A stretch of 64,000 bases of DNA, taken from assembly GCF_024223415.1 (NCBI RefSeq), contig NZ_CP100500.1. One strand, written 5' to 3'. Positions 46,148-61,478 of the stretch are shown here, one piece after another. The translations under genes were made by a program, and so were the position numbers. Numbering within the stretch: the first letter of the stretch is position 1; each line of letters opens with the position of its first letter. Source of the DNA: Escherichia coli (lineage in GTDB: Bacteria > Pseudomonadota > Gammaproteobacteria > Enterobacterales > Enterobacteriaceae). The notes beneath the pieces are model-generated. The model saw nothing but the letters and a program-made list of their open reading frames with translations. It had not been told where the DNA came from and did not search any database.

Positions 46148-46987
46148 TTCGGCGCACTGTATGAAACAACGTGGAACAAATAGGCACAAGAAATATAAAG
46201 GCGGGTAATTTTAAGGGGGCGTTGCTGTCGATATGGGGATCCACATAACGGGGCTACCTGGCTTTTTTTCCGGTTAAATGTCAATCAGGCTGGTGGGCTT
46301 TACCTGTTCGGTAGGTGTTATGATTATCGTAATACCTTTCCCCCAATGGGGTAAAAGCATCAACCGTAACGAAAGTCGTTATGGTTGCCACCGATACTCC
46401 AAATTTGGGTATCACGAGTAAGCCCCAAAATCTGGGTGTTACTCTTACTACCCAAACTACGGGTAGTTTCCGTAGTTTCATGGTCGAGTTGCAGATCTGC
46501 AACTCCCCCATCAACCACAGGCGAATTTCCGCCTTCGGTCATTCCTTAATCATCTGCGTAATCATAATGATTATTCAGCCAGCTCAATTTTGAGCTTTGC
46601 TTTAAGTTCAGCGAGTTACCGCGCCGACTTCCTCAAATTGAGGTTTCCGAAAATATCAGTGGGTTAGCGATTAAGCAGATGGATAATTAACCTGCGAAAA
46701 TTTCGCAGGTTACATCAGCGACGTAATTCTCGCTGTTCCTGCCCGGAGGTGTCGACGAATTTCGTCGGAACCTAAGCCTGCCGGGAAGTCCGTACGTTAA
46801 ACGTACGGAGTTAATTCGACATCACACACTACGTTGTCAATTTGCAAAGGAGGGGCGGAAATCACCATACCTGCCACCCTGTCATACAGAAAGGGATTAC
46901 GATAATCGTAACAGGATACAACGCCGCCTGTAATCGTAACCAATTGATTTTTATGATGACGCAAATCTGCGTTATCAGTCCTCAAAG
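46148..46987. other. 840-bp non-coding arm of the island, rich in hairpins and short repeats
   Basis: No convincing ORF. Contains palindromes CCAAATTTGG, GTTGCAGATCTGCAAC, AACCTGCGAAAATTTCGCAGGTT, CGACGAATTTCGTCG, CCGTACGTTAAACGTACGG and TTACGATAATCGTAA, plus three ATCGTAA motifs. Confidence 0.4.
46163..46189 (+). repeat. Phased heptamer array 1 (GAAACAA, GGAACAA, GGCACAA at exact 10-bp spacing)
   Basis: Read directly; lies just inside attL. Confidence 0.7.
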
Positions 46988-47278
46988 TTACCGCCGCAAC
47001 CGTTCCGGCTTCTTCCACTGATAAGTGTTTTTCGCGCTCTCCTGATACATCGCCACGCGTCGACGGTATGCCAGCAACTCTAGTACTCTGATTCGTATGT
47101 CGCGCATATCCACGCCGTTAAGCTCAATACCGTCACGGCGCATCACCTCCGCCACAACACGCACATAATTTTCGGCGGTCACGCTGTCCGGCTGCGTGGC
47201 CTGTTCGTCATGCTGCTGGCTGATTCCGGTAACGCGGCGGATTAATCCCAGTAGTTCGGCTTCGCTCATTCTCGTCAT
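46988..47278 (-). CDS. Hypothetical protein (96 aa), last gene of the packaging operon
   Basis: ORF whose start overlaps the terL stop; no recognisable motif. Confidence 0.6.
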   Translation of the reverse strand: MTRMSEAELLGLIRRVTGISQQHDEQATQPDSVTAENYVRVVAEVMRRDGIELNGVDMRDIRIRVLELLAYRRRVAMYQESAKNTYQWKKPERLRR

Positions 47279-48936
47279 ACCCCATCAAACGCCGCAAGCC
47301 GCTCTTTGTGGCTGTCGCTCATATCGAATGCAAATTCCTCATGCTCTGCCTGGAATGTGCCAAACGCCATCAGCGCCGCAACGCTCGGGTCTATCTTGTT
47401 GGATGATTTTTTCTTGTTCGGCTTGATATTGGCGTTCGCGTCACTCTGCATCACAACATTACTCATTGACCAGGCCAGCACCGGATCACCACGATGCACA
47501 ATCACCTTCCGGTTAACAAAAACTTCGAACGATTTCGCCGCCGGACTGAAACGAAGGTATGTTTGCGGGAACGGCTCCACCTCAAATCCTGCGCCCTGTA
47601 GCTGCGTCATCAGGTGCGTGGCGTTCCATGTATCGAAGCCCACCAGCCGGATATTAAAATTTTCCGCGTCCTTCATGATGTCATCCCTGATACGGTCGTA
47701 ATCAATACAGTCGCCTGGCGTTGTGCGTATCCAGCCCGATTTTGCCCACTGGCGATAGATGGCGCGGTTTTTATTGGCGGGATTCTGTAGCTGCTGCTCC
47801 GGCAGATAATGACGGGAAACCAGCATGATGGTTTTACCAACCGGAAAGGCATAACACACGCTTGAAATATCATTTGTTGATGATAAATCCAGCCCCGCAT
47901 AGCACTCCTGCCCGTGTAAATCTTCCTCCGTGAACGTTCCGGCACACTCAGCCCATGCACCGTTACCCATCCACGGCGTAGCCCCCTGACACCAGATATT
48001 AAAGCGCTTTGTCATCATCTCCACCCACTGCGACGGAATACCCCGCGCTTTCTGGATGGTTGAGGCAAGTTTTTCACGATCGACGGAAACATCGATATTG
48101 GGATTCGCCTTTATCCACATCGCCGGATCGTCAACCTCGCTTTCATCATCCAGCTCGTAAATCATCACGAACATGGATTCATTAACCTCTTCACCATCCA
48201 GTATCTGACAGCAATAATCATAGTGCTGCTTACAGGCAGAAATAACGTTGCTTCCCGATGTGGTAATGGCGAATAACAGCCCGTCAGGACGCGCACCCAT
48301 CCCAAGTTCAAGCGCGGAATATACGCCGTTATCGGGGTGTAAATGGTATTCATCCACAATGGCAAGACTCGGGTTTGTCCCCTCAATGGTCGCCGCCTTT
48401 GCCGCCAGTGGCTTTAACAGGCTGTTGGTTTTCGGGTGTATCACCTTGTGCGCCTGAATATTTACCCGCTTTCGTAACGGTCGGGATAAAAGGCACATCT
48501 GACGCGCATCATCAAACACGATCCGCGCCTGATCACGACTCACGGCGGCGGTGTAAATATCCTGCTGCCCGTTTTCCATAACCAGAAACCAGTTAGCCAG
48601 GATAGCGGCGACCGTGGATTTGGCATTTTTTCGCGGTACTTCAATGAATGCGCTGGTGTATTTGCGCCGTCCGGTGGACTTAACCTTAAAGCCCAGGATG
48701 CACGCAAAGGCGAACTGCTGCCACGGCTCCAGTTCAATGGGGCTACCGCGCATTGCACCTTTTACGTGCGGGCACACCCTGGAAAAGGCAATAAACCGCT
48801 CCACGACCTCCGGATCGAACGTGTAAAGGGGGTTTTCAAGGTCAGAAAAATACCGTTTAACAGCCTGTTTCAGTCGTTTACAGGCCGTAATTTTGCCGTT
48901 TTTTACGCCTTCTGCGTACTCATGCCAGGCGGTCAA
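47275..48936 (-). CDS. Terminase large subunit
   Basis: 553-aa ORF with ATPase N-terminus and nuclease C-terminus typical of Terminase_1 family TerL; overlaps terS. Confidence 0.9.
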   Translation of the reverse strand: MTAWHEYAEGVKNGKITACKRLKQAVKRYFSDLENPLYTFDPEVVERFIAFSRVCPHVKGAMRGSPIELEPWQQFAFACILGFKVKSTGRRKYTSAFIEVPRKNAKSTVAAILANWFLVMENGQQDIYTAAVSRDQARIVFDDARQMCLLSRPLRKRVNIQAHKVIHPKTNSLLKPLAAKAATIEGTNPSLAIVDEYHLHPDNGVYSALELGMGARPDGLLFAITTSGSNVISACKQHYDYCCQILDGEEVNESMFVMIYELDDESEVDDPAMWIKANPNIDVSVDREKLASTIQKARGIPSQWVEMMTKRFNIWCQGATPWMGNGAWAECAGTFTEEDLHGQECYAGLDLSSTNDISSVCYAFPVGKTIMLVSRHYLPEQQLQNPANKNRAIYRQWAKSGWIRTTPGDCIDYDRIRDDIMKDAENFNIRLVGFDTWNATHLMTQLQGAGFEVEPFPQTYLRFSPAAKSFEVFVNRKVIVHRGDPVLAWSMSNVVMQSDANANIKPNKKKSSNKIDPSVAALMAFGTFQAEHEEFAFDMSDSHKERLAAFDGV

Positions 48937-49321
48937 GCTCGTCCTCTTCCTCTGTTTCCGGTGGATTTCTGCGTCGGCTTACCGGGTCAAAACCCAGCAA
49001 AGAAGCCATTTTGATCATTATTCTTTCTGCGTCAGCCTTTGCGCTCAGGGCGGGGTTTCTGCTCTCGCTGCCCTGACTGTTAACAATGCTGAACCCGCGC
49101 GTCGCAAGGTCTTCGACGGCTTTGCGGTATAGGGAGTAGTTAACGCAATACAGCTCAAGATTGCTCCAGTCGGCGGGGGTAAGGTCTTCCCGCCCGGAAA
49201 GCTGGCGCGATTTTTCCTTCCATTGCCTGACGGCAATTTCATCCAGGTAAGCGGGGGCTTTTGGTGGTCTTGCCATGTTCTTTTTTCGCCCAATTATTTT
49301 CAAAAAAATTCCCGTGCACAA
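48920..49321 (-). CDS. Terminase small subunit (P27 family)
   Basis: 133-aa ORF MARPPKAPAYLDEIAVRQWKEKSRQLSGREDLTPADWSNLELYCVNYSLYRKA... resembles P27-family TerS. Confidence 0.8.
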   Translation of the reverse strand: MCTGIFLKIIGRKKNMARPPKAPAYLDEIAVRQWKEKSRQLSGREDLTPADWSNLELYCVNYSLYRKAVEDLATRGFSIVNSQGSESRNPALSAKADAERIMIKMASLLGFDPVSRRRNPPETEEEDELDRLA

Positions 49322-49565
49322 AAATTTGAGCAGGCGGTCGGTTCTGGGCAGGGTCGGGTTCGTCCTGAAAACTCCCCCCCACCCCGTCCGGCTGCCTCAT
49401 CAGCGATTGCGAAAACATTCCATGACCTCGCGGTCACGGTCGGTTAATCGCTTCGCTGTGGTGCGTTTTGTGCGCCCTGTCCTGTTGGCTTTGTGCTCTG
49501 TCTCCTGTGTCTTCCATGTGTCACGCTGCCTTATCAGTCCACGTATCAGCCTGGTTTGCTCCTGT
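49322..49565. other. Predicted cos/packaging-site region between HNH and terS
   Basis: 244-bp GC-rich non-coding gap containing CCCCCCCACCCC (49373-49384). In HK97-type genomes cos lies between the HNH endonuclease gene and terS. Confidence 0.35.
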
Positions 49566-61251: not shown

Positions 61252-61277
61252 AATTAACTACACCATTAACTACACCG
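61252..61277. repeat. attR core: second copy of the 26-bp direct repeat
   Basis: AATTAACTACACCATTAACTACACCG, identical to 46122-46147, immediately 5' of the int start. Confidence 0.8.
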
Positions 61278-61282
61278 ATCGT

Positions 61283-61319
61283 TGCACAAAGGGCTACAAC
61301 GTGAAACAAGCTGGAACAA
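61283..61319 (+). repeat. Phased heptamer array 4 (TGCACAA, GCTACAA, GAAACAA, GGAACAA at 10-bp spacing)
   Basis: Read directly; lies just outside attR on the roxA side, with further GAAACAT and GAAACGG at 61366 and 61376. Confidence 0.65.
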
Positions 61320-61478
61320 GAAAAATCACAAATTTGTTTATAATCAAAAACATAATGCACAATCTGAAACATTATGAAACGGCAAAAAACACTAATTGAT
61401 AAAATATGTCCATACTTCACGCATTACGTTAAGCATCCGTTATAATCGGTTGCAGATACCAGCCTGTGGATGCTTAAC

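Follow-up and report, generated by a model that had tools for sequence, protein, structure and literature searches.

Phased heptamer arrays in a capsid-forming island of Escherichia coli as candidate operators for the excisionase AlpA

A 64-kb stretch of Escherichia coli DNA (assembly GCF_024223415.1, contig NZ_CP100500.1; hereafter the window) carries a phage-inducible chromosomal island (PICI) between phoQ and roxA, and four arrays of a heptamer close to GNAACAA, repeated at exactly 10 bp, were found in this island. Our analysis indicates that the arrays are probably operators for AlpA, a 62-amino-acid (aa) protein encoded by the island, which would act on them both as the recombination directionality factor (RDF) of the island and as a transcriptional activator.

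All four arrays, reported in a preliminary description of this DNA, were read back from the sequence at the same coordinates and with exact 10-bp spacing. Array 1 (46163-46189, plus strand; starts at 46163, 46173, and 46183) reads GAAACAA-cgt-GGAACAA-ata-GGCACAA, with a degenerate fourth unit ahead of it at about 46153. Array 2 (53837-53863, plus strand; starts at 53837, 53847, and 53857) reads TGAACAA-cct-GGAACAA-cca-CGAACAA. Array 3 (59909-59955, minus strand) has five heptamers, seen as TTGTTNC on the plus strand, and is inverted relative to the other three; it lies 45 bp past the stop codon of the integrase gene, int, and 282 bp upstream of the alpA start. Array 4 (61283-61319, plus strand) reads TGCACAA-agg-GCTACAA-cgt-GAAACAA-gct-GGAACAA. 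Two extra units, GAAACAT and GAAACGG (61366-61382, plus strand; starts at 61366 and 61376), are spaced 10 bp apart and lie 25-40 bp from the attachment (att) core. These units are weaker and offset from the phase of array 4 by 3 bp, and they are conserved in two related islands, L043 and L004. The consensus GNAACAA is a fair summary of the units but an over-specific one, as the strict pattern fits only part of them: ACAA is present in 15/15 units and AACAA in 11/15, while G at the first position is a preference of about 0.9 bit.

The arrays stand far above chance. The pattern GNAACAAN3GNAACAA has four matches against 0.02 expected. Chains of at least three ACAA in the 64 kb number four at 10-bp spacing, all of them in the island, and 0-1 at spacings of 8, 9, 11, and 12 bp. 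In a phased weight-matrix scan, all four arrays scored above 31 and no further site in the window reached the threshold of 17; among 200 dinucleotide shuffles, the top score was 21.4. Because training of the matrix used the same array sites that it scored, this test is partly circular; the ACAA-chain test does not share this feature and therefore carries the main weight. The E. coli DNA fetched comprised about 127 kb inside islands, with 24 chains, and about 204 kb outside them, with none; the latter consists of flanks that are partly redundant between loci. The preliminary description had proposed a genome-wide count against a shuffled control and had named a similar density of arrays in random AT-rich intergenic DNA of this genome as a result that would speak against its observation; no such background density was seen in the window or in the non-island DNA fetched. 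A chance origin of the arrays is excluded, and the phasing at one helical turn supports the earlier suggestion of cooperative binding by an island protein.

The empty site of strain K-12 fixes the position of the arrays relative to the island. In the window, the island is flanked by phoQ, ending at 46041, and roxA (ycfD), starting near 61479. The empty phoQ-roxA spacer in K-12 is 75 bp long and reads TAA-ATATGCCC-ATACTTCACG (in the att comparison, TAAATATGCCCATACTTCACG). The identity block AAATATGTCC occurs exactly twice in the window, at 46040-46049 (attL, plus strand), where it begins on the final base of the phoQ stop, and at 61402-61411 (attR, plus strand), which is the true right junction. 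The insertion bounded by these blocks is an island of 15,362 bp (46050-61411). EcCICFT073 (locus L046, strain CFT073) occupies the same phoQ-roxA site with the same junctions and the same att block. A 26-bp repeat (at 46122 and 61252) had previously been taken for the att sites, which placed array 4 on the chromosomal side of attR, perhaps within attB, and made the island boundary look fuzzy. The K-12 site contradicts all of this. Moreover, an identical 26-mer is found in an island at smrA/abgR and a close variant in an island at tqsA, and a repeat carried by islands at other chromosomal loci is not derived from attB; the same two observations rule out array 4 as a part of attB or of a remnant island. 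With the junctions at AAATATGTCC, array 4 lies within the P arm of the island and the boundary puzzle is gone.

The 26-bp repeat is instead an island-internal tandem pair of 12-mers (ATTAACTACACC twice). It opens a 75-nt direct repeat (79% identical, family D1) that includes arrays 1 and 4, so that these two arrays are copies of one module, array 1 in the P' arm and array 4 in the P arm of attP. The attP site is thus two-armed, with one co-oriented module per arm made of a tandem 12-mer pair followed by three or four heptamers at 10-bp phasing. The earlier view that the arrays occupy strategic sites holds insofar as they lie at non-coding regulatory spots, but the supposed att flanks are really the arms of the island.

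By gene content, the island is a capsid-forming PICI (cf-PICI; prototype EcCIEDL933). It encodes Int, AlpA, an Icd-like protein, a DUF4222 protein, a RepA-type helicase, and SSB, together with a packaging set consisting of an HK97-type capsid protein, protease, portal, head-closure and adaptor proteins, HNH, TerS, and TerL. It has its own capsid and packaging genes, no tail or lysis genes, and a size of about 15 kb, as cf-PICIs do. Identity to the EcCIEDL933-like locus L043 is 98% for the capsid protein, 93% for TerL, and 95% for AlpA.

The candidate binders named in the preliminary description were the arm-binding domain of the integrase, AlpA, or another island regulator, and the 12-mers bear on the first of these. 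The gene int (60001-61230, minus strand; PHROG 1) encodes a tyrosine integrase with an N-terminal Arm-DNA-bind_3 domain (PF13356) and a PF00589 domain, and its start is likely the ATG at 61230, judging from an alignment with relatives (alignment A2). The 12-mer pair is an exact copy in both arms, at 46123-46146 in the P' arm and at 61253-61276 in the P arm (both on the plus strand), the latter 23 bp upstream of the int ATG. Measured from the centre of the att block, the near edge of the pair is at 78.5 bp in P' and at 130.5 bp in P. In about 30 related islands from many Enterobacterales (among loci L002-L044), the int start is directly adjoined by a tandem 12-mer pair, whose sequence falls into classes: GGTGTAGTTAAT with variants, one beginning GGTGTATCA, TGTGTATTGCAA, TGTATAAACA, and GTGGGGTAA. 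The class tracks the N-terminal domain of Int, with a mean identity of 0.79 within classes compared to 0.54 between them (between-class maximum 0.69). AlpA, in contrast, can be near-identical across 12-mer classes (between-class means of 0.74-0.78 for classes B, D, and E, maximum 1.00). Because of this co-variation, the 12-mers are likely the arm-type sites of Int.

If the N-terminal domain of Int instead bound the heptamers as arm-type sites, Int would bridge the arms and the core and would also occupy arrays 2 and 3. The direct orientation of the arrays in both attP arms, as is usual for arm-type sites, and the presence of Arm-DNA-bind_3 in Int fit this proposal, and a study of helper-embedded PICIs leaves either Int or AlpA as the binder of the arm repeats (PMC10111431). 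However, the heptamers stay constant while the 12-mers beside them in both arms switch between ATTAACTACACC, AGTGACTACACC, and AACTGACCACAC, and it is the 12-mers that co-vary with the Int N-terminus. The heptamers are also not confined to the attP arms: arrays 2 and 3 are about 7.5 kb and 1.4 kb, respectively, away from the closest att core, and no role is known for arm sites there. Finally, three to five units at exactly 10 bp is the pattern of an RDF rather than that of the usual paired arm sites. The heptamers therefore need a binder other than Int, and we consider binding by Int to be quite unlikely.

AlpA is the best of the named candidates, being shared by the array-bearing islands, having the fold of an RDF, and being associated with the arrays. 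The gene alpA (59438-59626, minus strand) encodes a protein of PHROG 2790 (excisionase and transcriptional regulator) that matches the Pfam family Phage_AlpA (PF05930, E=5.6e-18). The best structural match of its AlphaFold model (pLDDT 87) is the GIsul2 excisionase (TM 0.83-0.90), and further matches are RdfS, Pukovnik Xis, and TorI, the last of these a weak and distant relative with 26% sequence identity. By family and modelled fold, AlpA is thus an RDF with the winged helix of an excisionase. Besides Int, it is the sole predicted DNA-binding protein that we found to be common to all array-bearing islands. RDFs bind cooperatively and head-to-tail to direct repeats one helical turn apart; Apl requires at least three adjacent operators, and Apl, Cox, and Vis reuse their att repeats at distant promoters (PMC7498355). 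The arrays of the window fit this pattern: each consists of at least three direct, head-to-tail repeats one turn apart (3, 3, 5, and 4 units), array 4 is flanked by the 12-mer pair (61253-61276) on one side and the core (61402-61411) on the other, and the island encodes a small winged-helix excisionase.

A search of related satellites, which had been suggested earlier, recovered the arrays in other islands, including EcCICFT073 and the EcCIEDL933-like island. EcCICFT073 has the equivalents of arrays 1, 3, and 4, in its P' arm, its int-alpA spacer (six units), and its P arm, and L043 has all four arrays; array 2 is the only one absent from islands that lack the HK97 capsid module. Arrays 1 and 4 are kept in L002, L003, L004, L043, and L046, and the changes in array 1 among these islands are confined to spacer and N positions. 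Array 3 is present in 15/15 islands whose AlpA is at least 92% identical, with 5-6 units located 270-287 bp from alpA. At least eight sequence variants occur among these 15 islands. In alignment A3, the AACAA columns are invariant and the spacers variable. Arrays in both arms were found in all seven islands with an AlpA of at least 60% identity whose ends lie in the fetched sequence, and these islands occupy four chromosomal sites and carry three different types of replication initiator. Between islands, 27/84 spacer and N columns vary compared to 9/126 motif columns (p=4e-6). The ACAA columns were used to find the arrays and so introduce an ascertainment bias into this comparison; when they are left out, 6/42 motif columns vary (p=0.03). 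Substitutions thus seldom hit the motif and fall mainly in the spacers and the N position, which is the footprint of a sequence-specific binding site, and selected motif positions with freer spacers are what is expected of RDF operators.

The same comparison bears on the possibility that the arrays have no specific protein function and are products of slippage or duplication, or simply curved A-rich DNA. Arrays 1 and 4 are indeed copies of a duplicated 75-nt module, and int-alpA spacers of Klebsiella and Citrobacter contain perfect 10-bp repeats that look like slippage. The units of the window arrays, however, are not whole copies of each other, as the motif is kept while the spacers differ within and between arrays, and islands with 10-20% divergence in the DNA around the arrays still have them at the same positions and with the same numbers of units. 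An origin of this kind is very unlikely to account for the arrays. As for the Klebsiella, Citrobacter, and related islands, their int-alpA spacers hold CATTCAACAG in 4-5 copies, GACACGTAAC in three, and TGTTCATCA in five (L019, 4228-4422; L021, 445-649; L025, 1-155). One-turn repeats of divergent sequence in this spacer are thus a trait of the family.

Short phased direct repeats are also typical of iterons and of cosB/pac sites, and the island has its own RepA-type helicase, TerS, and TerL. The arrays might thus be replication iterons or packaging (terminase) sites. Iterons would be expected to lie beside the initiator gene and to co-vary with it, which the heptamers do not: the same arrays occur with three initiator types (a RepA helicase, a DUF927 protein, and a DNA primase family), and a separate region with CCCCAC repeats (55997-56210) adjoins the rep gene. 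Arrays 1, 3, and 4 are also found in islands without TerL, which speaks against packaging. Either role is extremely unlikely. The region at 55997-56210 is itself iteron-like, with three copies of TTTTGCTCCCCACTTTTT at a spacing of about 84 bp in addition to the CCCCAC repeats, just 3' of the stop codon of the RepA-type helicase gene, and is likely, from its sequence, the replication origin of the island.

Another possible explanation is a different binder altogether, such as a host response regulator of the OmpR/PhoB type, an inducer from the helper phage, or another island protein. Arrays of OmpR half-sites (of the GNNACA kind, spaced 10 bp) bear a resemblance to the units GAAACA and GNAACA. 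In addition, array 2 persists across three AlpA subtypes, and alpA is switched on, through an undefined route, by a factor from the helper phage (PMC6092414). On the other hand, the arrays are restricted to islands, with none in the roughly 204 kb of flanking E. coli DNA, and their positions in the att arms have no obvious role for a host osmoregulator. Their spacers are rich in G+C (CGT, CCA, GCT), whereas OmpR sites are T-rich. In the arms and upstream of alpA, the presence of regular arrays follows the type of AlpA, and AlpA is also the only shared DNA-binding candidate found apart from Int. We therefore regard a different binder for the arrays as a whole as rather unlikely.

Two of the arrays are placed near genes that AlpA could regulate. 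Array 2 precedes the capsid operon, itself read on the minus strand, by about 170-215 bp. It is abutted by a conserved box, ATTTACAAA (53867-53875, plus strand; TTTGTAAAT in the sense of the island), which doubles as the plus-strand -35 element TTTACA for a gene encoding a 157-aa protein (TTTACA-17-TAAACT in the promoter scan). The preliminary description had placed the array in a divergent promoter between the capsid operon and this moron gene. The lone sigma-70-like site faces the 157-aa gene, so the divergent promoter was not borne out, but the array and the TTTGTAAAT box are conserved upstream of capsid operons, also in islands and genera without the 157-aa gene. Across genera, the box comes directly after the stop codon of the upstream gene, and in cf-PICIs of other genera it is followed by a homologous, looser triplet of phased TGTT-type units, (T/G)T(G/T)T(T/A)C. 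Array 2 accompanies the HK97-type capsid module, as seen in L043, L005, L044, and viral contigs.

The leader of the capsid operon (53715-53785, minus strand) can fold into two adjacent hairpins (minimum free energy -40.6 kcal/mol, z=-4.05), the first with a GACG loop. In cf-PICIs of other genera, the first hairpin is GTGGCACTCAGACGTGAGCCGCCAC, with compensatory changes (CTCA/TGAG vs CCAG/CTGG), and in several relatives an intrinsic terminator lies just upstream. The hairpins have no Rfam match; an Rfam search of the island gave no match at the arrays either, the sole hit being a sub-threshold manA elsewhere.

The second regulatory position is upstream of alpA itself. In EcCICFT073, AlpA is an activator of its own promoter region, and over-expressing it brings about excision and replication of the island (PMC6092414), while mutation of alpA abolishes induction of EcCIEDL933 (10.1101/2022.09.08.507074). 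A candidate alpA promoter (59656-59716, minus strand) has the -35 element TTGCCA at 59716-59711 and a TG-extended -10 element, CACAAT, at 59693-59688; it is a match to the consensus only. A degenerate fifth phased series, GACACAA/GACACAT/AACGCAA/AACACGA (59656-59695, 10-bp spacing), overlaps this candidate promoter and scores 21.7 in EcCICFT073. A nearer, activator-dependent alpA promoter with TATAAG at about 59886-59881 is a candidate picked by eye only. Promoter assignments here come from sigma-70 and terminator scans of four regions and remain weak; in either att arm, the sigma-70 scan found no promoter-like site. The heptamers resemble -10 hexamers, and in O157-type islands a 10-bp deletion moves the alpA -10 element onto the next unit (AACAAT). 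A 91-aa open reading frame covering array 3 (59704-59979, minus strand) has no family hits and is broken by indels in relatives, and it is probably not a gene.

If AlpA binds the arrays, a simple model can be proposed. Induction of a helper phage would lead to the production of AlpA, which would polymerise on at least three adjacent units, its monomers arranged head-to-tail and cooperatively along one face of the helix and bending the DNA. On array 4, the bend would fall in the stretch of the P arm that separates the Int arm sites from the core and would favour the excisive complex, and it may also modulate int expression. AlpA bound to the opposite arm, on array 1, may serve to stabilise this complex or to bridge it. 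Binding to array 3 would underlie the positive autoregulation of alpA reported for EcCICFT073, and binding to array 2 would switch on or tune the capsid operon, coupling its expression to induction. In its full form, the model has one 62-aa RDF acting through one operator in four places to link excision, auto-induction, and direct activation of the capsid operon, with AlpA as the late-gene activator of cf-PICIs. We hold this full form as a tentative extension, and a doubtful one. Should it be true, the atypical placement in two arms would allow AlpA filaments on both of them to shape or bridge the excisive complex.

Several observations weigh against AlpA as the binder. Array 2 is also present in L005 and L044. 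In these islands AlpA has only 48% identity, and regular arrays are missing from the arms and from the region upstream of alpA, which weakens the assignment of array 2 to AlpA; this array may have a different or additional binder. Around AlpA relatives with 37-62% identity, at 36 loci in other genera, strict ACAA arrays are mostly absent, so that co-variation of the motif with AlpA is not cleanly shown. What is found near these distant relatives are variant arrays (GCACAA, GAGACAA, TGAACAA) and perfect 10-bp tandem blocks, and in other genera looser, TGTT-rich phased units. As to geometry, array 1 is distal to the 12-mers relative to the core, and RDF sites in both arms would be unusual. Judged by the best sigma-70-like alpA promoter, the transcription start would be 228-274 bp downstream of array 3, a distance too long for simple activation. 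In PICMIs, AlpA is an excisionase, in line with its proposed role here, but has no effect on transcription (PMC10803314). The literature that we searched contains no paper joining AlpA, PICIs, and electrophoretic mobility-shift assays and none with an AlpA operator.

A few further arrays were encountered during the comparison. TGCACAA arrays in L031-L033 were initially counted as arm arrays but were withdrawn, as they lie about 6 kb downstream of alpA. In viral contigs (L049-L168), GAACAA occurs three times at 10-bp phasing in at least 120 stretches, about 30 of which are PICIs or cf-PICIs; the arrays in the other 90 or so stretches, some of them with 4-5 units or with two arrays, could be operators that belong to other elements. 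Classical (non-capsid-forming) PICIs carry a different phased array, GTCAC in 3-4 copies at 10-bp spacing (L004, 6826-6860; L006, 6986-7010), in a region without an annotated gene that in L004 is just downstream of a small hypothetical gene after TerS. This array may be a site for another island protein. Lastly, a 267-aa open reading frame of the window island (58582-59385, minus strand) matches Icd-like families of cell-division inhibitors or repressors over its last 65 or so residues, and related islands encode an Icd-like protein of only about 65 aa or have the longer form annotated as a pseudogene.

AlpA is the master switch of the intensively studied Gram-negative PICIs and cf-PICIs, and its DNA target is undefined in the literature that we searched: neither these arrays nor any AlpA operator in PICIs has been described there, and a search for a paper on PDB 8C3T gave nothing relevant. 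Among E. coli genomes, 883 are alpA-positive. The arrays provide a concrete, mutable candidate operator in the prototypes EcCICFT073 and EcCIEDL933, with which the coupling of excision, the induction of AlpA by helper phage, and capsid expression through AlpA can be tested. The analysis also corrects the boundaries of the island at the phoQ-roxA site, distinguishes two kinds of repeat in the arms, one likely bound by Int and the other likely by the RDF, and extends the published attP geometry of helper-embedded PICIs to PICIs in general.

That geometry is the first point of comparison with known systems. Mageeney et al. (2023) described a doubled motif, tgTGTATTGCantgTGTATTGCa, at 81±2 and 132±2 bp from the attP centre of helper-embedded PICIs (PMC10111431). 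Like the repeat described here, it is a tandem 12-bp pair with two co-oriented copies per attP at matching distances, and Xenorhabdus relatives in our comparison carry the published sequence itself. The paper covers only the 12-mer pair and states that the motif is unique to helper-embedded PICIs, whereas the pair in the window island has the sequence GGTGTAGTTAAT and is accompanied by phased heptamers. Because the geometry matches and several classes of the pair occur in Enterobacterales, the published motif appears, on sequence comparison, to be one class of a general PICI feature.

The antiterminator AlpA of Pseudomonas aeruginosa shares with the PICI protein its name and a helix-turn-helix (HTH) that reads promoter DNA. 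It is a larger protein, with its DNA-contact residues at 128-142 and an N-terminal ring in the RNA exit channel, and one protomer binds a single 6-bp site, GGGACG, between the -35 and -10 elements (PMC9371919). The 62-aa PICI AlpA lacks the N-terminal segment and its candidate sites are phased arrays. The antiterminator model was ruled out on these grounds.

RDF operator arrays at att sites and promoters are already known from 186, P2, P4, lambda, and KplE1. In lambda, the Xis sites X1-X1.5-X2 are likewise three head-to-tail sites on one face of the DNA, located between the Int arm site P2 and the core, and Xis bends the P arm for excision (PMC7498355). Lambda differs in having one array in one arm and an Xis without a role as an activator of distant promoters. 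TorI of KplE1 (CPS-53) has the same winged-helix excisionase fold as AlpA but weak sequence similarity. Its sites are GTTCG, GATCG, and GTCCG, three of which lie at a 10-bp period beside the -35 element of PintS (PMC2951348). The K-12 sequence at these sites reads CAGTTCGTCATGGTTCGCTTCAGATCGTTGACA, and the TorI unit is similar to the TTGTTCG units of the window arrays. The Int arm sites of KplE1 lie between the TorI sites and int (PMC2951348), which matches the order of array 4, the 12-mers, and int. However, the TorI motif has an invariant G..CG while the window heptamers have an invariant TTGT (ACAA), TorI sites are described on attL only with none known at distant promoters, and torI is at the prophage end opposite intS.

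Close parallels are found in Apl of coliphage 186 and Cox of P2. These are also small HTH RDFs that bind direct repeats 10-11 bp apart, with the same repeats at att and at far promoters and a need for at least three adjacent operators; Apl has five repeats at att and seven at the pR-pL switch (PMC7498355). In contrast to the window island, Apl and Cox repress, and they do so between face-to-face promoters, whereas AlpA is reported to be an activator and belongs to a different protein family, Phage_AlpA (PF05930). The arrays of the window differ further from those of Apl and Cox in being present in both att arms and upstream of a late operon, that of the capsid.

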